64,000 bases of DNA, taken from IMG/VR virus record IMGVR_UViG_3300002334_000208. One strand, given 5' to 3'. Positions 6,319 to 31,700 of this stretch are shown piece by piece. A program made the translations under genes and the position numbers. This DNA comes from a virus. Taxonomy: Duplodnaviria; Heunggongvirae; Uroviricota; Caudoviricetes. The stretch's first letter is position 1; every line of letters starts with the position of its first letter. Below the pieces are notes generated by a model that saw only the letters and a program-made list of their open reading frames with translations, did no database searches and was not told where the DNA came from.

Positions 6319-6852
6319 TCAGCTCTCAAAGCGTTTTAAAGGCCCTCTAAGCCGTATTCCATGTGATAAGAGACCAAAGAGCGCGATCATAGCCGCTTCC
6401 GCCCTACCATCATCTTTTACCCGTTTGAACGTCTCTTCAAAGTCAGGGAAGAGCTTCATTGCTAGATTTCGGGCCCCTGTCTTACTCGCTGGGCATCCCA
6501 TCTTCGACTTCCATGACTGTGGGCGCGTTCTAAAGAGTTCGACATCTGACGCCATCATCACCCCCCGCACCAATCCGTACCGGTCGCCAAAATTGAATGC
6601 GCCTACGTGTCCATCATGTGGCATCGACCAGACATCCTCAATGTAAGCAACGACATCGCCTTCTGGAGGGAGCATATTATAGATCGCTCGACCATCCACT
6701 TCATTTCTCTTCTTTGACTTTCCTACCGGGATCATGGGCATGTCATGAATATCCATCACTAATGTATTTGGATTGATGAACGCCAGCGCACCGTGTGCTC
6801 CCGGATCGATACCAATGAATGTGGGTTTTGTTTCCATGTTGTAGTTAACCAT
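6319..6852 (-). CDS. RuvC-like Holliday junction resolvase
   Basis: N-terminal FIGIDPGAHGALAF motif (RuvC/YqgF fold), 177 aa. Confidence 0.55.
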   Translation of the reverse strand: MVNYNMETKPTFIGIDPGAHGALAFINPNTLVMDIHDMPMIPVGKSKKRNEVDGRAIYNMLPPEGDVVAYIEDVWSMPHDGHVGAFNFGDRYGLVRGVMMASDVELFRTRPQSWKSKMGCPASKTGARNLAMKLFPDFEETFKRVKDDGRAEAAMIALFGLLSHGIRLRGPLKRFES

Positions 6853-21350: not shown

Positions 21351-21600
21351 ACGGTACAAAATATGTGGACCAACTTCTAGTGGAAATTTCTTTGTTTCTT
21401 ATCATGTGTGGGGACCGTTCTGGAAAAAGTCTATTATGGATGGCTGGTACTATCCACGGCAATATGACAGTTTTGCTACAGCAGAAATATATCTTAAAAC
21501 TCAGCGCAAACAAGACGCAGTAATTGATGAGGCAGTTGCAGACGCAAAAATAAAAAAAGCACAACGAAGAAAAGATTACAAATGTCAGGAAATAAAATGA
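21343..21600 (+). CDS. hypothetical protein (start moved to MSRRYK)
   Basis: ORF. Confidence 0.35.
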   Translation: MSRRYKICGPTSSGNFFVSYHVWGPFWKKSIMDGWYYPRQYDSFATAEIYLKTQRKQDAVIDEAVADAKIKKAQRRKDYKCQEIK

Positions 21601-22604
21601 GCAAGCAAACTCTCGGCGTCTTCATCGGACGCTTCCAACCATTTCACGCCGGTCATCTGGAAACAACCAGACAGGCGCTGGAGCTTTTTGATAAAGTGAT
21701 TATCATTATTGGCTCGGCGGACGTACCGGCAACAACTAAAAATCCTTTGGATATAGAGGCGCGCTCAGCAATTATTACAGCAGCATTCACCACTGAGGAA
21801 TTAGCACGTATCCACATCACCCGCGCAGACGACCATGACTACCAGCCAGGGCGCTGGATTGAACAGATCAAAATTCTGGTAGAGTGGACTCATTCACCCG
21901 ACCAGTGGGACATCACGCTGGTAGGACATCACAAAGATGAATCTTCATCTTATCTGGACTGGTTTCCAAATTGGAACTTCTACGAGTCTGAAAATTTCGA
22001 TGGCATGGGTGCTACGACAATCCGTGATCAGTTTTTCAATGGCAGTTCACAATTTATTTCTCCGAATTTCTTCTGCAACGAAAAACATCGGGCAGAAGTG
22101 TTTGATCGGATGACGCCACTGGCAGATATTCTCAGACCGGAATGGTGCCTAATTCACGAATATGAGAGCATTTGGGGTAAAGGGCCTCACAGGACCGCTG
22201 ACGCGCTTGTCGAGTGCAACGGTCATATCCTACTGATTGAACGCGGCCAAGCGCCCGGCAAAGGTCTTCTGGCGTTTCCCGGAGGCTTTCTGGAAAAAGG
22301 CGAGAGATTAATTGATGCTTCTATCCGAGAATTGATGGAAGAGACTAATATTGGTATCACAAAAAGTGAACTAATTGACTCTGCTTCACTTCCAATTGTG
22401 TTCGATGCCAAAAATCGCGATCCGCGCAGTTGGAATATCTCTGGGTTGACACATTTCAAAATTACGGCTACGACTTTACCAGACGTACACCCAGCAGACG
22501 ATGCGGCAAAAACAAGCTGGTATCCAATCACCATGATGCATGGTAAAGGAAAATTATTCTTTGCGGACCACTATCGAATTATTCAGAAACTTCTAAACGT
22601 TTAG
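21582..22604 (+). CDS. nadM: bifunctional NMN adenylyltransferase / Nudix hydrolase
   Basis: GVFIGRFQPFHAGH (HxGH nucleotidyltransferase motif) N-terminal; Nudix box GGFLEKGERLIDASIRELMEETNI C-terminal. Confidence 0.8.
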   Translation: MSGNKMSKQTLGVFIGRFQPFHAGHLETTRQALELFDKVIIIIGSADVPATTKNPLDIEARSAIITAAFTTEELARIHITRADDHDYQPGRWIEQIKILVEWTHSPDQWDITLVGHHKDESSSYLDWFPNWNFYESENFDGMGATTIRDQFFNGSSQFISPNFFCNEKHRAEVFDRMTPLADILRPEWCLIHEYESIWGKGPHRTADALVECNGHILLIERGQAPGKGLLAFPGGFLEKGERLIDASIRELMEETNIGITKSELIDSASLPIVFDAKNRDPRSWNISGLTHFKITATTLPDVHPADDAAKTSWYPITMMHGKGKLFFADHYRIIQKLLNV

Positions 22605-22612
22605 GAAATAAC

Positions 22613-23011
22613 ATGCCAGTCAATAAACAGAATATTGATATCTTGATAGACATCCTAAAAGATGAAGAAGTATTTTTTGATATGGCAGATTATCAAATCT
22701 ATACATCGCCATCTTCATGCGGAACAGCTTCATGCGGAACAGCTTCCTGCCTATGTGGGCATATTAATTATATATTGAACGGAGGTAAAATGGAACCTCA
22801 GGATTGGGGTAGACATAGTACAGCAAATAAGTTCTTGGGAATCTCGGACAGCGAAGGTAGGCTGTTATTTTTACCGGAAGAGAAGGTCATGCCAGACATA
22901 TATGGCGGCGATCTTTCACTTCAAAGAAAACTGGCGATAAATACATTACTGCATCTTAAAGAGACTGGCGAAGTTAACTGGTCTGATGCTAATCAAAAAA
23001 TCGGAGCATAA
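22613..23011 (+). CDS. hypothetical protein with SCGTA tandem peptide repeat
   Basis: 15-nt tandem DNA repeat 22717-22752. Confidence 0.4.
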   Translation: MPVNKQNIDILIDILKDEEVFFDMADYQIYTSPSSCGTASCGTASCLCGHINYILNGGKMEPQDWGRHSTANKFLGISDSEGRLLFLPEEKVMPDIYGGDLSLQRKLAINTLLHLKETGEVNWSDANQKIGA

Positions 23012-23012
23012 C

Positions 23013-24419
23013 ATGACAGCCAATATTATTCTCGACACCGACAGCTACAAGCAAAGTCACCATCTGCAGGACCCACCCGGTACCACGCACAAATCGTTCT
23101 ACATCACGGCGCGGGGAAACCCGGACACTGATTGTGAAGTTGCATTTCTGGGGCTGCAGCCGTACATCGAAAATATGCGCATCAACGCACAGAATATTGA
23201 AGAAGCGCAAGACGTTATTCCGAAGCACATCCCCGGGCTGGAATTCAATTTCGATGGCTGGCAAACAATCCTCAATGAATTCGATGGCTTTCTTCCTATC
23301 GCCATTGATGCGCTGCCGGAAGGAACTGTTGTCGAACGTGGTACACCGATGTTGCAGACGCACAACACCGATCCTCGTTTTCCTTGGCTCTGTGGGCATC
23401 AGGAAACTCGTATGCTCCGTTCGATCTGGTATCCATCTACGGTTGGTACCAAATCTCGTGGCTACAGGAGATTGATCGAAGAAGCTCTCCGCAAAACAGG
23501 TGGCGATGTTGACTCCGCTGTATTCAAGCTCCACGATTTCGGTGCGCGCGGCGTATCATCTCGTGAATCTTCTGCCATCGGCGGCTGGGCGCATCTCACC
23601 AGTTTTCAAGGTACGGATACAATGATGGCGCTGCTACATGCTCGCCAATATTACAATTGTGATATGGCTGGATTTTCCATACCGGCGTCCGAACACTCAA
23701 CAATGGCCTGTTGGGGTGAAGGGCGAGAGGTCGAAGCATACCGTCACATGCTGGAGACTTTTGGTCACACGATGTTTGGCACCGTCTCAGACACATGGGA
23801 TATTGAAAACGCCTGTACAAATGTTTGGGGCAACACGCTCAGAGATGAAGTTATTGCAATTCTTGGTCAGCTTGTCGTCCGCCCCGACTCTGGCGCAGTA
23901 ATCCCAATGGTGCTAGATTGTTTGGATCGCCTCGGTGTCCAGTTTGGTATTACCTTCAACAATGATGGCTTCAAAATGCTGCACGATAAAGTGCGGTTGA
24001 TCCAAGGTGATGGACTTGACGATACTTCTTTACCCCTCCTGATTGGTGCTATTGCTGATGCATTGTGGTCACTCGATAATACTGCATTTGGTATGGGTGG
24101 CGGTCTGCTGCAGAAGCACAATCGTGATGATTATAAATGGGCGATGAAATGTAATGCTATCTCATATGGTGATGAGGTCTGGCATGGAGTCAACAAAGAA
24201 CCAAAATCTGATCCAGGCAAAGCGTCTGCAAAAGGCAGAGCCTGGGTGAGCCAAGAAAATCATGTCTGGTATTCCAGCAGACATCAGCTATTAAGTTTTG
24301 AGGAAGATACAAATCCGGTCTTTCCTAATGCGCTCATCACTCATTATGTCAATGGCTTCACAACCATCGACGGTGACATGGAAGCTATTCGTGAAAGGGT
24401 TGCTCAAGATGTCAGATAA
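23013..24419 (+). CDS. nadV: nicotinamide phosphoribosyltransferase
   Basis: N-terminus ILDTDSYKQSHH, length ~468 aa, GTD and DG motifs typical of NAPRTase/Nampt family. Confidence 0.8.
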   Translation: MTANIILDTDSYKQSHHLQDPPGTTHKSFYITARGNPDTDCEVAFLGLQPYIENMRINAQNIEEAQDVIPKHIPGLEFNFDGWQTILNEFDGFLPIAIDALPEGTVVERGTPMLQTHNTDPRFPWLCGHQETRMLRSIWYPSTVGTKSRGYRRLIEEALRKTGGDVDSAVFKLHDFGARGVSSRESSAIGGWAHLTSFQGTDTMMALLHARQYYNCDMAGFSIPASEHSTMACWGEGREVEAYRHMLETFGHTMFGTVSDTWDIENACTNVWGNTLRDEVIAILGQLVVRPDSGAVIPMVLDCLDRLGVQFGITFNNDGFKMLHDKVRLIQGDGLDDTSLPLLIGAIADALWSLDNTAFGMGGGLLQKHNRDDYKWAMKCNAISYGDEVWHGVNKEPKSDPGKASAKGRAWVSQENHVWYSSRHQLLSFEEDTNPVFPNALITHYVNGFTTIDGDMEAIRERVAQDVR

Positions 24420-26245: not shown

Positions 26246-26800
26246 ATGGAGACGATAATGACACACGAAACCAGACATGTAATGATCGACATCGAAACGC
26301 TTGGGACACAACCTGGCTCGGTTATCATTCAAATTGGGGCCAAGCGCTTTGATCCTCGCACCGGCTATGTTTTTGTTAGAGATTTCGAGATGGGCATTGA
26401 TCCAAATTACCCACCATCGCTCAACGCTATTATTGATGCAGAGACTTTGAAATGGTGGCTGCAGCAAGACCCTAAAGTTCTGGCTAAAGTCATGTCCGGC
26501 ACTCATAATATTGTCAATGGCATGCGTGGTCTTTCTGAATATTGTTCCGGTTGCACTCATTTTTGGGCTAAGTCACCAGACTTCGACATGGGTCTTCTGG
26601 GTTATTTTTATGGAAAGTATTACACATCAACGCCTTGGACATACAAGAATAGAATGGATGTGCGAACTGTGCTTGAAATGGCAGATGTAACACAGCCACC
26701 GGCAGTGACTCCACATGACGCCGTGTCCGATTGTGAGGCTCAAATCATAGGAGTGTTGACAGCTTACGAAAAATGCGGTAAGACTGTCGTACTCGCCTAG
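26246..26800 (+). CDS. DEDD-family 3'-5' exonuclease
   Basis: VMIDIETLG (Exo I), HDAVSDC (Exo III-like H..D). Confidence 0.55.
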   Translation: METIMTHETRHVMIDIETLGTQPGSVIIQIGAKRFDPRTGYVFVRDFEMGIDPNYPPSLNAIIDAETLKWWLQQDPKVLAKVMSGTHNIVNGMRGLSEYCSGCTHFWAKSPDFDMGLLGYFYGKYYTSTPWTYKNRMDVRTVLEMADVTQPPAVTPHDAVSDCEAQIIGVLTAYEKCGKTVVLA

Positions 26801-27008
26801 CAATAGGCACTTCAAACAGTGAGAAAACTTCACACCAACAAAGGAGACGCCCTGATGAAGAGCTAATCCAATCCCAATGAGAAACAAAACACACAGTAGC
26901 AAATAATACGAATTAATAAATTGACAGAACCTCGGTACGAGAAATCGCATCGGGGTTTTTGTTTGACTTAACGTCCATAAAGGTGTATGCAGAAGAAAAG
27001 GAATCAAT

Positions 27009-27302
27009 ATGAAAATAACTCAGCAAGGATCAAGAACAAACGTCACTATGACGTTTTCAAATGGGTACAGCGTCAGTCTGACATCAGGCCACCGTGTAGG
27101 CTTGGAAGATTTTGGAATCATCTGGGCTGCATATTGGTCTGCAATCGACACCACCACAATCTCAGTTAATGAGTGGATGTATGATGATGAAGCTACTAAG
27201 TTTCTTGATTACATGAGCAAACTGGAGCCAGTCAATAATACTGTTGACAGTAAAGAATATATCGACGCAGACATCATCAAAATTTTTGGAGGCAATGGAT
27301 GA
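27009..27302 (+). CDS. hypothetical protein translationally coupled to rtcB
   Basis: 4-nt ATGA overlap with rtcB start. Confidence 0.4.
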   Translation: MKITQQGSRTNVTMTFSNGYSVSLTSGHRVGLEDFGIIWAAYWSAIDTTTISVNEWMYDDEATKFLDYMSKLEPVNNTVDSKEYIDADIIKIFGGNG

Positions 27303-28714
27303 ACATCACCGGCAGACATTTAATCGAATGGGGTTTCAACCCCGGTCCATTGTTTCCTGTTATGTTGGCATATGCCAATCAGCAGACGTACATTGACGAG
27401 CGCAGTCTTGAAGGCATCAAAAACTTACTTTTGGCACAGGATGAATTCATTCCTGTACCAAAACTTGAGCTGAAACCTCTCAGCCTTGATCCCCTTGCCA
27501 ATGTGACTTTCAACATCCTAACAACTGCTGGATGCGAATACGACCTAGATAACCTCTTGGCTGTAGAAAAAATCATGGGCAAACTCATGCGTACTCCGGT
27601 CGCCACTCGCGCAACTGTATTACCTGACGCCTGTCCTACTGGACCTAATTCAATGCCGGTTGGCACTGTTGTGGAAAGCCCACACATTCATCCCGGTTGG
27701 CACAGTGCCGATATCTGCTGCTCTATGTTCTTGACTGAGTACAAAAACGTAACCCCTGCTATCCTATTGGATGCGGTGAGTGATGCTGTGCATTTCGGCC
27801 CCGGTGGTCCAGACAGATATCGCATGACTGATGAATTGTTGGAAGCGTTCATGGGGAATTCATTCCTGAATGATCCACATATGTTGGACCTTGCAAACCG
27901 CCATCTTGGCAGTTCTGGCGATGGAAACCATTTTGCCTCGGTTGGCACTATGCAATCTAGCGGCAACACTACTCTTGTAACTCACTCTGGTTCTCGCGGC
28001 CCTGGCGCTCGCCTATATAAAATTGGCATGAAGGCAGCTCAGAAATACACCAAGTCTATTTCTCCGGCTACCCATAAATCAAATGCTTGGATTGACTCTG
28101 AAAGCGCAGAAGGTATTGAATACTGGAAAGCTCTGCAGATCATGCGCGACTGGACTAAATTGAATCATACTTTGATTCATGCAAGTTCTAGTTATCGCGC
28201 TATGGCTAAGGCTAATAATATACGTACTGTTAACCGCTTCTGGAACGAACACAATTTCGTATTCAAGCGCAATGGCATGTTTCTGCATGGCAAAGGTGCG
28301 ACTCCAGCCTTCGACGGTTGGGCAGATGATGCTAAAATGTTCACCATCATACCATTAAACGCCGCTGAGCCGATTCTAATCACTCGTGGCAGCGACAACC
28401 CTGATGCCCTTGGATTCGCTCCACACGGCGCAGGCAGGCTGATTTCACGCGCCCAGCACAAAAGAGACCTAGTAGCCGTTGGTATCTCTGACGCGCAGGC
28501 TTTCGAAGAAGAAACTCGTGATATCGATATGAGGTTCTGGTCCGGCGAAGCTGACGTGACTGAGCTACCATCCGCCTATAAAAATGCGTCGATGATCCGT
28601 GAAGGTATCAAAAAGTATGAGCTTGCACAGATCGTAGACCAAGTGTTGCCGTATGGATGCATCATGGGTGGTGTGTTCGATTGGCGAAATTATGCTAACG
28701 AGCAATTCAGCTAA
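27299..28714 (+). CDS. rtcB: RNA-splicing ligase RtcB (3'-phosphate/5'-hydroxyl RNA ligase)
   Basis: 471 aa; metal/GMP-binding motifs GDGNHFASVG, HSGSRGPG, APHGAGR. Confidence 0.85.
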   Translation: MNITGRHLIEWGFNPGPLFPVMLAYANQQTYIDERSLEGIKNLLLAQDEFIPVPKLELKPLSLDPLANVTFNILTTAGCEYDLDNLLAVEKIMGKLMRTPVATRATVLPDACPTGPNSMPVGTVVESPHIHPGWHSADICCSMFLTEYKNVTPAILLDAVSDAVHFGPGGPDRYRMTDELLEAFMGNSFLNDPHMLDLANRHLGSSGDGNHFASVGTMQSSGNTTLVTHSGSRGPGARLYKIGMKAAQKYTKSISPATHKSNAWIDSESAEGIEYWKALQIMRDWTKLNHTLIHASSSYRAMAKANNIRTVNRFWNEHNFVFKRNGMFLHGKGATPAFDGWADDAKMFTIIPLNAAEPILITRGSDNPDALGFAPHGAGRLISRAQHKRDLVAVGISDAQAFEEETRDIDMRFWSGEADVTELPSAYKNASMIREGIKKYELAQIVDQVLPYGCIMGGVFDWRNYANEQFS

Positions 28715-28732
28715 ACAAATTGGAGTTTATAA

Positions 28733-29422
28733 ATGAAAAAACCATCGACAAGAGCTGATGGACTCGCTCGTGATATGATCGAAGGACGCCCAACGCGCCA
28801 GAGCAATCCATCTTCCTTGATGGAGTATGTTCGGAGCGGAGGTGACAAAGAACGCCTTGGCGGTGTACTGGATCAGTTAGAGCAAGAGAAATCTGTACAG
28901 CCGACAACTGCCAAAATGACGATTGAGAAACTTATTGATTTGTGTAATACCACAAACGAACTTATTGAAGAAGCACTTTACGGCAGTGAAGAAGGCTATG
29001 CATGTACACGAACCGATGGCGAAGGAAACATATGCAAAGGTTTATTGGAATATTATCCTGATCATCCAGAGATGGGATGTTCATGCCACATAAACCCACC
29101 TTGCTCTTACTGCACCGATCAGCATTTAGAATGCCCGAAATGTGGATGGAAAGAAGAGTCAATTATTCACATTATAAATGATCATGTAGTGTCAGTTAAT
29201 AAAGACACCGGTGTGCTTACCAGCCATGGTCGGCGCAAGCTGGATAACACAAAAATCGATTATTATATCAACTCCCACAGTAATTCATCTCAGATATGCG
29301 AAGGCGTATATCCTAAAGGGACAACACGAGCCGAAGTCTTAAAAAAAGTTGATGGCACTTTTGGGGGAAGATGGGAAAGTTTTGGCAACGGCAAATTTAA
29401 ATTTATCGCGTACACTGATTAG
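28733..29422 (+). CDS. Cys-rich zinc-finger protein (229 aa)
   Basis: GCSCH...CSYC...CPKCGW cysteine clusters. Confidence 0.4.
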   Translation: MKKPSTRADGLARDMIEGRPTRQSNPSSLMEYVRSGGDKERLGGVLDQLEQEKSVQPTTAKMTIEKLIDLCNTTNELIEEALYGSEEGYACTRTDGEGNICKGLLEYYPDHPEMGCSCHINPPCSYCTDQHLECPKCGWKEESIIHIINDHVVSVNKDTGVLTSHGRRKLDNTKIDYYINSHSNSSQICEGVYPKGTTRAEVLKKVDGTFGGRWESFGNGKFKFIAYTD

Positions 29423-29614
29423 GAGCATGCCATGAAATATACTATGAAGAAAAAAGAGCCACTAAACACAAAAATATGGCACCGATGGTTTGCATGGCAT
29501 CCTGTGATCACTCGACAGAATACTATTACATGGCTATCCTTTGTCTGCCGGAAACAAGAGTTCTGGCGTGGCGGTAGATGCTGGCACTATTCAAATACTG
29601 ATGATTGAGGATTT

Positions 29615-29690
29615 TGGAGACATAGGTGGGAATCGAACCCACATGTGAAGATTTGCAGTCAACTGCGCTTACCGTTTCCGCCACTATGTC
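29615..29690 (-). tRNA. tRNA-like gene, 76 nt with encoded CCA; anticodon GCA (Cys) if the loop is placed as CUGCAAA
   Basis: reverse complement GACATAGTGGCGG...GTGGGTTCGATTCCCACCTATGTCTCCA. Perfect 7-bp acceptor stem, perfect 5-bp T stem with canonical TTCGATT loop, 3-bp D stem. The anticodon stem has two U-U mismatches, so it may score as atypical or pseudo. Confidence 0.5.
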
Positions 29691-30072
29691 ATATTGTTTC
29701 TGTCCAGTTACCTGTGTCAGGATCGATAATCTCGACTTTTGTCTGGCGCAGCTGTTTATCAACTTTTGCATCCAGTCCATCGTACAACCCAAGTCTCTTG
29801 GCTGTCTCGATCTTATGCCATGCCTTGAATATGCCTGTGGCAGACATGCGCCTGAACGCTTCCATTTTGTTTCTGAGCTGAGACCGATGCTCTTCACAAT
29901 TACCAACAGCACCAGAATCGATGTGAGTACACCGAACTGCGCTATCAGTTTTGTTACGCTTTTGACCACCTTTGCCGGAACCTCGATAGAAGTCCCAGCG
30001 GCAGTCTTTAGCAGTTACAGAAAATAGAAGTTCTTTAGCCATTACGCTGCGCGGACCATAGGATCGGCGCAT
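29689..30072 (-). CDS. GGQ-motif peptidyl-tRNA hydrolase (class-I release factor domain-3 only; ArfB/PrfH-like)
   Basis: RGSGKGGQKRNKTDSAVRCTHIDSG...CEEHRSQLRNK matches the RF GGQ catalytic domain; 127 aa; stop codon overlaps the tRNA 5' end. Confidence 0.7.
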   Translation of the reverse strand: MRRSYGPRSVMAKELLFSVTAKDCRWDFYRGSGKGGQKRNKTDSAVRCTHIDSGAVGNCEEHRSQLRNKMEAFRRMSATGIFKAWHKIETAKRLGLYDGLDAKVDKQLRQTKVEIIDPDTGNWTETI

Positions 30073-30425
30073 GAAGCAAAGTCACTAAGACGTTTTGCAT
30101 TCTTGCGAGCGCGCTTGGCATGTGCCGCATTGATGCGTCCCTGATGCAGCTCGGCATTTTGCGCCGGAGACAAACAGGTGGGGTGAGCATAAATGATTGG
30201 AGGTCCGCCCCAGCGAGCAATCTTTTTCAGATGATCTGCAAAGACTGGCAGAAATCTATCTCGAAAACCTTTGCGCTTCTGAACTGAAACGCGAGAGGTA
30301 TTCACGGCGTCCATCATTGCGGCGAGGAAGCCATTTGAATATGGATTTGTGCGTTGAGGTACGCCAAGTGCAGCTGCTGCGCCGGATGACATAACAGCGT
30401 TTTTGAGGGATTTCAGTAGTGACAT
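30042..30425 (-). CDS. hypothetical basic protein (127 aa)
   Basis: ORF upstream of GGQ gene, same strand. Confidence 0.4.
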   Translation of the reverse strand: MSLLKSLKNAVMSSGAAAALGVPQRTNPYSNGFLAAMMDAVNTSRVSVQKRKGFRDRFLPVFADHLKKIARWGGPPIIYAHPTCLSPAQNAELHQGRINAAHAKRARKNAKRLSDFASCADPMVRAA

Positions 30426-30465
30426 TTATTTCTCCTGTCGAGGTTAATATTACCCGAACATAGAG

Positions 30466-30696
30466 TTAATCACTCTTTCTGTCAAGGTTGCTATCGAATG
30501 GGATGCAAGTGATATTCACTTCATTGATAAATGGTGGCTTGAAGCGAATCACTTCTGCAGCCACCCTCCGACATATATCCATAGAAGGAAAATTGCGTGG
30601 ACTGAAATCCTGCTGATATTTGTCGTTGAGCATTAGCCCAGCTTCGCCATAAATCATGCCGACCAGTACAAAGACTGTCATTGTTACGCCTGTCAT
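30466..30696 (-). CDS. small membrane protein (76 aa)
   Basis: N-terminal TM helix. Confidence 0.35.
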   Translation of the reverse strand: MTGVTMTVFVLVGMIYGEAGLMLNDKYQQDFSPRNFPSMDICRRVAAEVIRFKPPFINEVNITCIPFDSNLDRKSD

Positions 30697-31217
30697 TTCG
30701 ATCTCCTTATCATCGCCCTGACACGAGCCAGAACTTTCGGTTTACCAGCAATGCTGATGTGATTTGCGTTCTTCACTACGATAACGGTACCACGATTTAG
30801 TGGTCTACCAATGGGATCGTCGGTGATAAAATTGTCTACGAAGCGAGGCACCCTGGAAACCACAGGGGATTTCGGCGCGTCGATGATGGCGAGATAGTCG
30901 ATCTTGATTCCCTCTGCTGCCAACCGGCGCGAGAGCTTCGCTGCAGCGGTACCACCGAGCGAGTGACCAATGATTATGAGTGGGCGATGGAGTATACCGG
31001 CTTCACTTCTTTTTATGATGTCATTGTAGATGCGATTACCGGCATGCCGTGTGTAAACCTTCGCGCCAACTTTTGATGAAAGAGATTTTAACCCATGACC
31101 AAAAGAAGAGCCGCCAAGCCCCATGATTGCATATGATGGTTTTGCAGGATTATATTCTGACGTGGTTGTGCAACCAGCCATGAATATGAGAATAAAAATG
31201 AGAAGTAGTTTACGCAT
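30693..31217 (-). CDS. lipoprotein alpha/beta-hydrolase (GxSxG esterase/lipase-like)
   Basis: lipobox IFMAGC; nucleophile elbow IIGHSLGG. Confidence 0.55.
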   Translation of the reverse strand: MRKLLLIFILIFMAGCTTTSEYNPAKPSYAIMGLGGSSFGHGLKSLSSKVGAKVYTRHAGNRIYNDIIKRSEAGILHRPLIIIGHSLGGTAAAKLSRRLAAEGIKIDYLAIIDAPKSPVVSRVPRFVDNFITDDPIGRPLNRGTVIVVKNANHISIAGKPKVLARVRAMIRRSK

Positions 31218-31340: not shown

Positions 31341-31700
31341 TCAAGAATTCTTTGCTAATATCTTCAAACGTATGTCGATCCACTCCATTAATTGTGGAAG
31401 AGTTATGCAACCGGCACCGCCAGCGACAATTTCTCCGCCCCTAAATAGAACGAAACTGGGAGCAAATTTGCAATCATATGTGATCCCAAGGTCTTTGTCT
31501 TCATCCAAATCGGAGTATAAAAACAAACACTTATCGCCAATCTTCTTTTCGGCGTTATCAAGAATGATATCAAATTTGTTGCAGGGACCAGCCCATTCAG
31601 TCACAAAAGTCAGAAGAATTAAATCATCTGCCTTCTGAGCCTGGAGTAATTTTGCAAATTCATCGCAAAGGACGAATGAGAGTTGATCTGGTTTCTGCAT
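31341..31700 (-). CDS. thioredoxin-fold protein with non-canonical WAGPC active site
   Basis: LTFVTEWAGPCNKF aligns to Trx WCGPC; first (nucleophilic) Cys replaced by Ala. Confidence 0.6.
   Translation of the reverse strand: MQKPDQLSFVLCDEFAKLLQAQKADDLILLTFVTEWAGPCNKFDIILDNAEKKIGDKCLFLYSDLDEDKDLGITYDCKFAPSFVLFRGGEIVAGGAGCITLPQLMEWIDIRLKILAKNS

Follow-up and report, generated by a model that had tools for sequence, protein, structure and literature searches.

An RtcB-family RNA ligase, a mini release factor, and a tRNA-Cys gene in a divergent tailed phage: a putative minimal translation-maintenance island

The stretch of DNA analyzed here (the window; 64,000 nucleotides of a tailed phage, IMG/VR record IMGVR_UViG_3300002334_000208) carries, between positions 27,009 and 30,425, genes for an RtcB-family RNA ligase, a small protein built on the GGQ catalytic domain of class-I release factors (RFs), hereafter called the mini-RF, and a tRNA-Cys(GCA). 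Our analyses suggest that the parts of this region form a minimal translation-maintenance island and act in parallel, not as an obligate two-protein machine, a reading to which we assign a probability of about 0.55. An initial annotation, made from the letters of the window, had described the same genes as an RNA and ribosome repair-rescue module countering host tRNA- or rRNA-cleaving nucleases. That interpretation is partly supported by the results below, and its general idea of translation being maintained under RNA damage fits published comparative work (PMC7824862, PMC6514570).

The ligase is full-length, as the initial annotation had it, and matched Pfam family PF01139 with 105.3 bits (gathering score 27, E 5.6e-30) and phrog_1075, "tRNA splicing ligase," at 4.8e-76 over residues 2-468. 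Homologues are numerous (5850 proteins at E<=1e-10), many of them from alphaproteobacterial genomes, and the same clade occurs in phages of Cellulophaga, Tenacibaculum, and Rhizobium. The window protein has diverged far from the RtcB enzymes of solved structure, which it matched with an E value of 7e-6 by itself and of 8e-21 when the clade profile was used, and it belongs to a divergent phage/alphaproteobacterial clade. Six residues, Asp-138 and Cys-141 (aDiCC), His-211 (GNHF), His-229 (tHxGSRG), His-318 (EHN), and His-376 (PHGAGR), are invariant among 37 clade members and align with the active-site motifs of Pyrococcus horikoshii RtcB, in which we take D95, C98, H203, H234, H329, and H404 to be the metal-binding Asp, Cys, and three His together with the His that accepts guanosine monophosphate; by this alignment, the full catalytic residue set of the window ligase is intact. 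The clade also has an N-terminal extension of ~90 residues (window 27299-27590, RtcB residues 1-97) that is missing from the solved RtcB structures, and a Cys replaces the His of the canonical MPDxH motif (PDACP). The first 30 residues (TGxDLIxxGxxPGPxF) faintly resemble the tail motif of class-II CCA-adding enzymes (PF13735), although with an E value of 0.17 this resemblance is not significant. Because no match to TIGR03073, the model for PrfH-coupled RtcB (release_rtcB; cut-off 271.8 bits), was obtained even at E<=10, the window ligase is not of the PrfH-coupled RtcB2 type; for comparison, the ligase of the closest relative scored 61.7 bits with this model and that of a mycobacterial prophage 142.4 bits. 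RtcB-like genes as a whole are present in ~1.1-1.4% of phage records.

The GGQ protein matched the Pfam RF-1 domain with 70 bits (cut-off 35, E 1.7e-19) and phrog_3122 at 8.1e-27, residues 9-125 aligning with profile positions 17-129 of 136, and it reads GSGKGGQKRNKTDSAVRCTH, the catalytic loop of release factors. The initial annotation of a protein carrying a GGQ domain and nothing else was therefore right as to the domain, whereas the 127 residues it gave, counted from a start at 30072, are less likely than a start at the ATG at 30042 and a product of 117 amino acids (aa); this shorter start is most likely because it forms a TAATG overlap with the stop codon of orf127, an identical 117-aa protein is already on record (P0001), and homologues align from that residue. 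The scores obtained with RF2 (70.7 bits), RF1 (65.0), PrfH (56.2), and ArfB (32.9) profiles are all far under the family cut-offs because only ~62 residues match, corresponding for the class-I models to RF2 positions 222-284, where scores of 59-71 bits compare with RF1/RF2 cut-offs of 370-423. Domains 1, 2, and 4 and the stop-codon recognition motif, which RF1 and RF2 possess besides the GGQ domain 3, were not found. The PrfH score, for which the TIGR03072 cut-off is 166.65 bits, stems from the GGQ domain only, and the predicted model of the 117-aa protein contains no second globular domain like the rRNA-recognition domain of PrfH, which in the E. coli protein comprises residues 2-98 and 180-204 (PMC9304027). 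Nor does it have the flexible linker and basic C-terminal helix with which ArfB (NF006718) probes the empty mRNA channel: the last 32 residues are acidic (net charge -3) and predicted to form a structured helix/hairpin. By these comparisons the GGQ protein is neither a PrfH nor an ArfB, and these two among the counterparts named by the initial annotation do not apply to it, just as the ligase is not the RtcB2 that accompanies PrfH.

Sequence comparison instead places the mini-RF in a phage family of stand-alone RF-1-domain proteins (phrog_3122). This family is large and constant in length, with 586 proteins of 105-151 aa at E<=1e-5, and more than 150 representatives (50% identity) match over the full length at E<=2e-26. 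The predicted fold of the window protein is that of RF domain 3 (GGQ) with two extra helices and a C-terminal hairpin; Gly-25, Gly-26, Gln-27, Phe-72, and Trp-75 are invariant and Trp-113 nearly so, and the conservation of Phe-72, Trp-75, and Trp-113 points to a small conserved C-terminal module. The window protein is 40-45% identical to annotated mycobacteriophage proteins over 89-98% of its length. The label given to such proteins in SEA-PHAGES, "RF-1 peptide chain release factor," occurs in 255 phage records, 206 of them mycobacteriophages (~0.5% of phage records), and small GGQ-only proteins are also found in Acinetobacter and Pseudomonas phages. A scan of species-representative genomes with the family alignment returned mainly canonical RF1, RF2, and PrfH (residues 14-66), and these hits were excluded from all statistics. 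One family member, on contig L169 (3-400, + strand), lies within a cluster of six tRNA genes and has an in-frame TGA exactly at the invariant Trp that corresponds to Trp-75 of the window protein; it is full-length under genetic code 4, its other Trp codons being TGG, and the TGA is either a nonsense mutation, a sequencing error, or a case of TGA-to-Trp recoding.

What had been called a tRNA-like gene proved to be a genuine tRNA-Cys(GCA), called by ARAGORN and scoring 53.7 bits with Rfam RF00005 (gathering score 29). The acceptor stem is 7 bp long, the T arm is normal, the D stem has 3 bp, and the CCA end is encoded; the discriminator is U73, which, like the GCA anticodon, is an identity element read by CysRS. 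Two adjacent U.U mismatches, at positions 28:42 and 29:41, interrupt the anticodon stem. Together with the short D stem, they may be without consequence, may change how anticodon nucleases recognize the tRNA, or may weaken its function. No exact match to the anticodon and T arm of this tRNA was found in IMG/VR. As the initial annotation had noticed, the stop codon of the mini-RF gene runs into the tRNA gene: the last two bases of the TGA (29691-29689) are tRNA nucleotides 1-2, so that an RNase P cut at the 5' end of the tRNA would leave an mRNA ending in ...AUA-U, without a complete stop codon. Conservation extends to the close spacing of the two genes and not to the overlap as such, a tRNA gene starting 1-6 nucleotides past the mini-RF stop in three other loci (L134, L129, and L003).

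The two protein genes do not share a transcription unit. Genes are directed rightward from ~8.6 kb to 29.6 kb and leftward from 34.7 kb down to 29.6 kb, and the region straddles the meeting point of these two convergent units. The last four genes of the rightward unit are, in order, orf97, the RtcB gene, a gene for a Cys-rich protein, and orf58; those of the leftward unit are orf127, the mini-RF gene, and the tRNA-Cys gene. The RtcB and mini-RF genes are thus located at the distal ends of convergent units, 977 bp apart and with two unrelated genes between them.

To place this arrangement among related phages, hidden Markov models (HMMs) were built for both proteins, and genes were detected by tblastn and HMM searches within 10-kb flanks. 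The survey drew 118 GGQ loci from IMG/VR (28), metagenome contigs (80), ENA/Logan contigs (6), phage records (3), and the window itself, and clustering at 90% identity reduced them to 89 groups. Of the non-redundant loci, 27 have at least 5 kb on both sides; a second set comprised 80 IMG/VR loci with an RtcB gene of the same clade. In these 80 loci, no GGQ gene was found within 10 kb of RtcB, apart from one marginal match (E 0.003). Conversely, an RtcB gene was found within 5 kb in 3 of the 27 well-flanked GGQ loci, namely the window, L112, and L003 (a Mycobacterium abscessus prophage), of which the window and L112 are not independent and L003 was chosen from a hit list. L112 is the closest relative of the window for both proteins (GGQ protein 67% and RtcB 56% identical); its mini-RF and RtcB genes point in the same direction at a distance of 500 bp, and a tRNA gene was not detected in the locus. 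Between these two genes (6330-6590, + strand), L112 shows a tandem duplication, in which the last ~45 nucleotides of the mini-RF gene and the start of the next small open reading frame (ORF), encoding a membrane protein, are repeated ~190 bp farther downstream. In L003, the order is tRNA-Asp, RF-1, tRNA-Glu, RtcB (of another clade), a hypothetical gene, and peptidyl-tRNA hydrolase (Pth). The convergent orientation and these two counts speak against the term module used in the initial annotation. No partner gene conserved beside either RtcB or the mini-RF was found in the surveyed loci.

The association of the mini-RF with genes for tRNA or transfer-messenger RNA (tmRNA) is more widespread. Such a gene is present within 5 kb in 12 of the 27 well-flanked GGQ loci, and within 500 bp in 11/60 GGQ loci as compared with 4/71 RtcB loci. 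In four independent loci (the window, L003, L129, and L134) the tRNA starts 0-6 nucleotides past the mini-RF stop, the mini-RF gene of L134 lying inside a Leu/Ser tRNA array, and tmRNA genes are found near the GGQ gene in L011-13 and L031. RF-1-domain genes had been reported in 2018, together with Pth and tmRNA, in mycobacterial tRNA arrays (PMC5966550). Most GGQ-positive phage records are Bixzunavirus, with genomes of ~155 kb, and in BackyardAgain, the one such genome examined, the GGQ gene is located between DnaE and RecA. No genome of ~155 kb was present in a spread sample of RtcB-positive records, the Mycobacterium phages of that sample having genomes of ~60 kb and ~80 kb. For its part, phage RtcB adjoins tRNA clusters in the cluster M phage MrMagoo and in Listeria phage LMTA-94, with no GGQ gene in the stretch examined, and is found near a tRNA cluster in Proteus phage Privateer. 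The mini-RF family accompanies phage tRNA/tmRNA clusters as a satellite, and RtcB of phages likewise tends to adjoin such clusters.

We favor the reading that RtcB and the mini-RF are neighbors in the window because both are satellites of tRNA clusters and so share membership of the same island. In such a translation-maintenance island, RtcB would seal RNA ends by joining a 2',3'-cyclic phosphate or 3'-phosphate to a 5'-OH in the GTP- and Mn2+-dependent reaction of its family, its likeliest substrates being tRNAs, and possibly rRNA, cut by metal-independent ribonucleases. The mini-RF, which consists of the peptidyl-tRNA-hydrolase (GGQ) domain of a class-I RF and a short conserved C-terminal helix/hairpin and has no codon-reading domain, may bind in the A site of a stalled ribosome, whether empty or obstructed, and release the nascent chain independently of a stop codon. 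The orf127, mini-RF, and tRNA-Cys genes would be co-transcribed, the mini-RF/tRNA unit being of a type seen repeatedly in phages, so that excision of the tRNA by RNase P would set the 3' end of the mRNA. The trigger for these activities may be a host anticodon nuclease, a ribotoxin, or RNA decay induced by the phage itself.

Several points weigh against this reading. The adjacency of RtcB and mini-RF genes recurs in two independent lineages (the window with L112, and the Mclasvirinae prophages), which exceeds what independent placement of two rare genes would give and could reflect functional coupling, and in the window and L112 the pair is still adjacent despite a changed relative orientation. 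Most metagenome contigs in the survey are short, and the lack of an RtcB gene carries information only in the 27 well-flanked loci. The GGQ domain would have to bind the ribosome with neither a decoding domain nor a basic tail, the two U.U mismatches in the anticodon stem may compromise the function of the tRNA-Cys, and no experimental work on the mini-RF family was found in the searchable literature.

The recurrence in two lineages bears most directly on the strongest alternative, a dedicated rescue-and-repair pair of the PrfH-RtcB2 kind, which we nevertheless consider unlikely. Here the mini-RF would free ribosomes jammed by the action of a host ribotoxin (cut 16S rRNA or a cut tRNA in the A or P site), the subunits would split, RtcB would re-ligate the RNA, and the tRNA-Cys would refill the pool. 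The precedent of PrfH-RtcB2 is experimentally established (PMC9304027, PMC9223846, PMC13166195), and the proximity of the genes, which is within 1 kb in the window and is accompanied by a common direction in L112 and in the M. abscessus prophages (~150 bp apart in the latter), is consistent with it, all the more so as both genes are rare. However, the genes are convergent and not operonic in the window, 24 of the 27 well-flanked GGQ loci have no RtcB gene, and none of the same-clade RtcB loci has a GGQ gene in its flanks. Likewise, the ~200 Bixzunavirus phages carry a mini-RF, which in the genome examined is part of the replication module, and their genome size is not represented in the RtcB-positive sample. 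At the protein level, the mini-RF lacks the rRNA-recognition domain by which PrfH senses damage, its score of 56 bits falling well short of the PrfH cut-off, and the ligase lacks a match to the model of PrfH-coupled enzymes.

Next in our ranking, and also doubtful, is a purely housekeeping role with no link to host defence, in which the tRNA-Cys would supply codons, the mini-RF would serve as a back-up rescue factor for non-stop complexes arising from phage-induced degradation of host mRNA or from tmRNA overload, and RtcB would maintain the tRNA pool. The phage tmRNA genes beside the mini-RF in several loci and the occurrence of Pth and tmRNA in the same arrays fit such a role, and the array study advanced the idea that additional tRNAs come with additional rescue factors (PMC5966550). 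The proximity of RtcB to tRNA clusters has been interpreted as tRNA maintenance (PMC7881722), and no gene related to defence or coding for a nuclease inhibitor was identified among those of the island. On the other hand, a single tRNA-Cys would bring little codon benefit to a phage whose proteome is only 1.1% Cys, genes for NAD+ salvage lie in the neighborhood, and the RtcB substrates with 2',3'-cyclic phosphate ends are products of toxin-type RNases (PMC7824862).

By analogy with PrfH-RtcB2, the island may be a stripped-down phage version of that system with a built-in expression switch, although we regard this as improbable. The mini-RF would sense, through its C-terminal helix/hairpin in place of a decoding or rRNA-recognition domain, ribosomes jammed by cut tRNA or rRNA and free the peptide, after which RtcB would reseal the RNA, and the RNase P cut inside the mini-RF stop codon would make the mRNA a non-stop message. 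The cell's capacity for rescue would then govern the synthesis of the factor, as in the logic of ArfA; alternatively, the incomplete stop could be completed to UAA by polyadenylation, as in mitochondrial tRNA punctuation.

An offensive or regulatory function of the mini-RF, either as a host shut-off factor causing premature peptide release on host ribosomes or as an off-ribosome peptidyl-tRNA hydrolase, seems very improbable. The protein has no codon-reading domain, and therefore nothing would limit it to stop codons, and mini-RF and Pth genes co-occur in some arrays. To our knowledge, however, isolated GGQ domains are inactive without a ribosome-anchoring element, as seen in ArfB and RF biochemistry; moreover, the conserved and predicted structured C-terminal module suggests specific docking, and there is no evidence of toxicity. 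Finally, although the presence of a single RF domain and the two mismatches in the tRNA might be read as signs of decaying remnants, namely a truncated RF pseudogene and a degenerate tRNA, neither of them functional, this is the least credible explanation in view of the hundreds of homologues of the same length with invariant catalytic and C-terminal residues, an intact mini-RF frame translationally coupled to the upstream gene, and a tRNA that scores far above the Rfam threshold with acceptor and T arms, GCA anticodon, and U73 intact.

The features of the region are listed in Table 1.

Table 1. Features at the junction of the two convergent units; positions are those of the window.
Feature	Position	Strand	Description
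orf97	27009..27302	+	97 aa, function unknown; ORF list and junction sequence
RtcB-family RNA ligase	27299..28714	+	471 aa; PF01139, phrog_1075
Cys-rich protein, putative zinc ribbon	28733..29422	+	229 aa; phrog_22771
orf58	29432..29608	+	58 aa, GGAG ribosome-binding site; last gene of rightward unit
tRNA-Cys(GCA)	29615..29690	-	76 nt; ARAGORN, Rfam RF00005
Mini release factor (mini-RF, GGQ gene), most likely start	29689..30042	-	117 aa; TGA stop overlaps tRNA bases 1-2
orf127	30042..30425	-	basic (pI 11) ORFan; TAATG overlap with GGQ gene
Sigma-70-like promoter match TTGACA-17-TATGTT	30457..30485	-	upstream of orf127-GGQ-tRNA; consensus scan, 10/12 positions

The window encodes a large terminase, tail proteins, a family-A DNA polymerase (PolA), a helicase, a ribonucleotide reductase, and a primase, as expected of a tailed phage, and the RtcB/GGQ region belongs to its replication/accessory part. 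A megablast search with positions 26900-30500 found no near-identical DNA among 50,697 phage records, and the source is a previously unrecorded tailed phage; proteins of the window have also been recorded from seven JGI metagenome contigs, the longest of 85,105 bp, and the contig of the phage is at least 85 kb long.

The translational coupling of RtcB to the 97-aa protein, proposed in the initial annotation, is borne out by the ATGA overlap between the orf97 stop and the RtcB start, with a GGAGG 9 nucleotides upstream. The orf97 product has no match in Pfam, NCBIfam, or PHROG even at E 10 and no tblastn match in the 80 RtcB loci; its candidacy as an Archease-like RtcB cofactor was rejected, since it has no Pfam match at that threshold and is not kept upstream of RtcB in relatives. 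The Cys-rich protein had been annotated as a zinc-finger protein; its 10 Cys residues, including CSYC...CPKC, are there, and the zinc finger is more cautiously described as a putative zinc ribbon. It matched phrog_22771 (function unknown) at 1.3e-43, its C-terminal 146 aa having homologues in temperate Pseudomonas phages of 45-50 kb (JBD44-like) and in Caulobacter jumbo phages; in the 80 loci, it is not a conserved neighbor of RtcB. Zn-ribbon accessory proteins have been reported to adjoin bacterial RFH-RtcB (PMC6514570), but a correspondence with them is unsupported, given the homologues in these other phages and the lack of conservation next to RtcB. The orf58 product has no Pfam match. Directly upstream of orf97-RtcB lies a gene for an Rv2179c-like 3'-5' exonuclease (26246-26800, + strand; PF16473, 2e-31); its inclusion in an RNA-repair set was rejected, as it is not conserved near RtcB in the 80 related loci.

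On the leftward side, orf127 is preceded by a strong GGAG and by the sigma-70-like match, which is to be treated as a lead only, the number of such sites in the region not being above the shuffled expectation. The sole database match of the orf127 product is itself, and no tblastn match was found in any other GGQ locus; in ~90 other loci, the gene just upstream of the mini-RF varies, its product having an isoelectric point (pI) anywhere from 4 to 12. A role as an ArfA-like basic partner of the mini-RF was rejected on the grounds that orf127 is an ORFan and that its counterparts elsewhere are so varied. Between the primase gene and the mini-RF unit lie genes for a probable lipoprotein with an alpha/beta-hydrolase- or thioesterase-like GHSLGG motif (30693-31217, - strand) and for a thioredoxin (31341-31700, - strand).

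Upstream of the island, on the + strand, is a pair of genes for the salvage of nicotinamide adenine dinucleotide (NAD+; 21582-24419), which encode a bifunctional protein with cytidylyltransferase-like (NMNAT) and Nudix parts (21582-22604) and a nicotinamide phosphoribosyltransferase (Nampt; 22986-24419), the latter matching phrog_448 at 2.5e-129. Such NMNAT-Nudix and Nampt proteins resemble the NAD+-reconstitution pathways by which phages counter NAD+-depleting defence and which are typical of counter-defence islands. Because of this resemblance, the stretch from 21 to 31 kb as a whole may represent an accessory or counter-defence region.

Both protein families, their occurrence in phages, and their location close to tRNA genes have been annotated or published before, and the initial annotation's view of the combination as unusual did not withstand comparison: a row of RF-1, tRNA, and RtcB genes is present in annotated M. 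abscessus prophages, RF-1 genes have been described in tRNA arrays (PMC5966550), and PHROGs exist for both proteins. The novelty lies in a divergent phage carrying such an island in minimal form and in the overlap between stop codon and tRNA. Among characterized systems, the PrfH-RtcB2 pair of E. coli ATCC 25922 is the obvious point of reference, but there the genes form an operon, whereas those of the window are convergent, and a linkage of the window type is not conserved. PrfH has ~204 aa and the mini-RF 117, without the rRNA-recognition domain and under the TIGR03072 cut-off; the ligases belong to different clades, that of the window having an N-terminal extension and no TIGR03073 match. 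ArfB (YaeJ), ICT1, and mtRF-R (C12orf65) are, like the mini-RF, small proteins consisting essentially of the GGQ domain, and codon-independent release would be expected of all of them; ArfB-type proteins end in a flexible basic tail where the mini-RF has its acidic, predicted structured helix/hairpin, and no MTRES1-like partner is conserved beside the mini-RF.

With T4 Pnkp/Rnl1, which counters PrrC, the window shares the concept of a phage ligase restoring nuclease-cut tRNA. The chemistry differs, RtcB sealing 3'-phosphate and 5'-OH ends directly with no need for a kinase-phosphatase, and no cognate host nuclease is known for the window phage. No Pnkp or Rnl gene was found among the scanned ORFs of the island and its context, a window-wide survey for them not having been made. 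The phrog_1075 phages (Cellulophaga phi38:1 and Calle, Tenacibaculum PTm1 and PTm5, and Rhizobium phages) have RtcB proteins of the same clade (41-47% identity over 80-99%) and gave no mini-RF match in the search of phage records.

The closest parallel is found in Mclasvirinae mycobacteriophages and M. abscessus prophages (for example prophiT49-2, OQ417962), which have a mini-RF of the same family (41% identity over the full length) followed by a tRNA and then RtcB, annotated as "RF-1 peptide chain release factor" and "RtcB-like RNA ligase." There, the island closes an array of 24 tRNAs with a tmRNA, all co-directional, whereas the window has one tRNA and a convergent arrangement; in addition, the prophage RtcB is of another clade (26% identity), and the window has no Pth. 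The related cluster M phage MrMagoo has RtcB without a mini-RF in the stretch examined. With one tRNA, one mini-RF, and one RtcB, the window offers a compact test case that could show which stalled ribosomes mini-RFs rescue and whether they are used, with or without RtcB, against tRNA- or rRNA-cleaving defence. If a coupling to RtcB were true, the principle of ribosome repair known from PrfH/RtcB2 would extend to viruses by way of a much smaller release factor; as it stands, the island is mainly a new and divergent example of a pattern annotated in mycobacteriophages.

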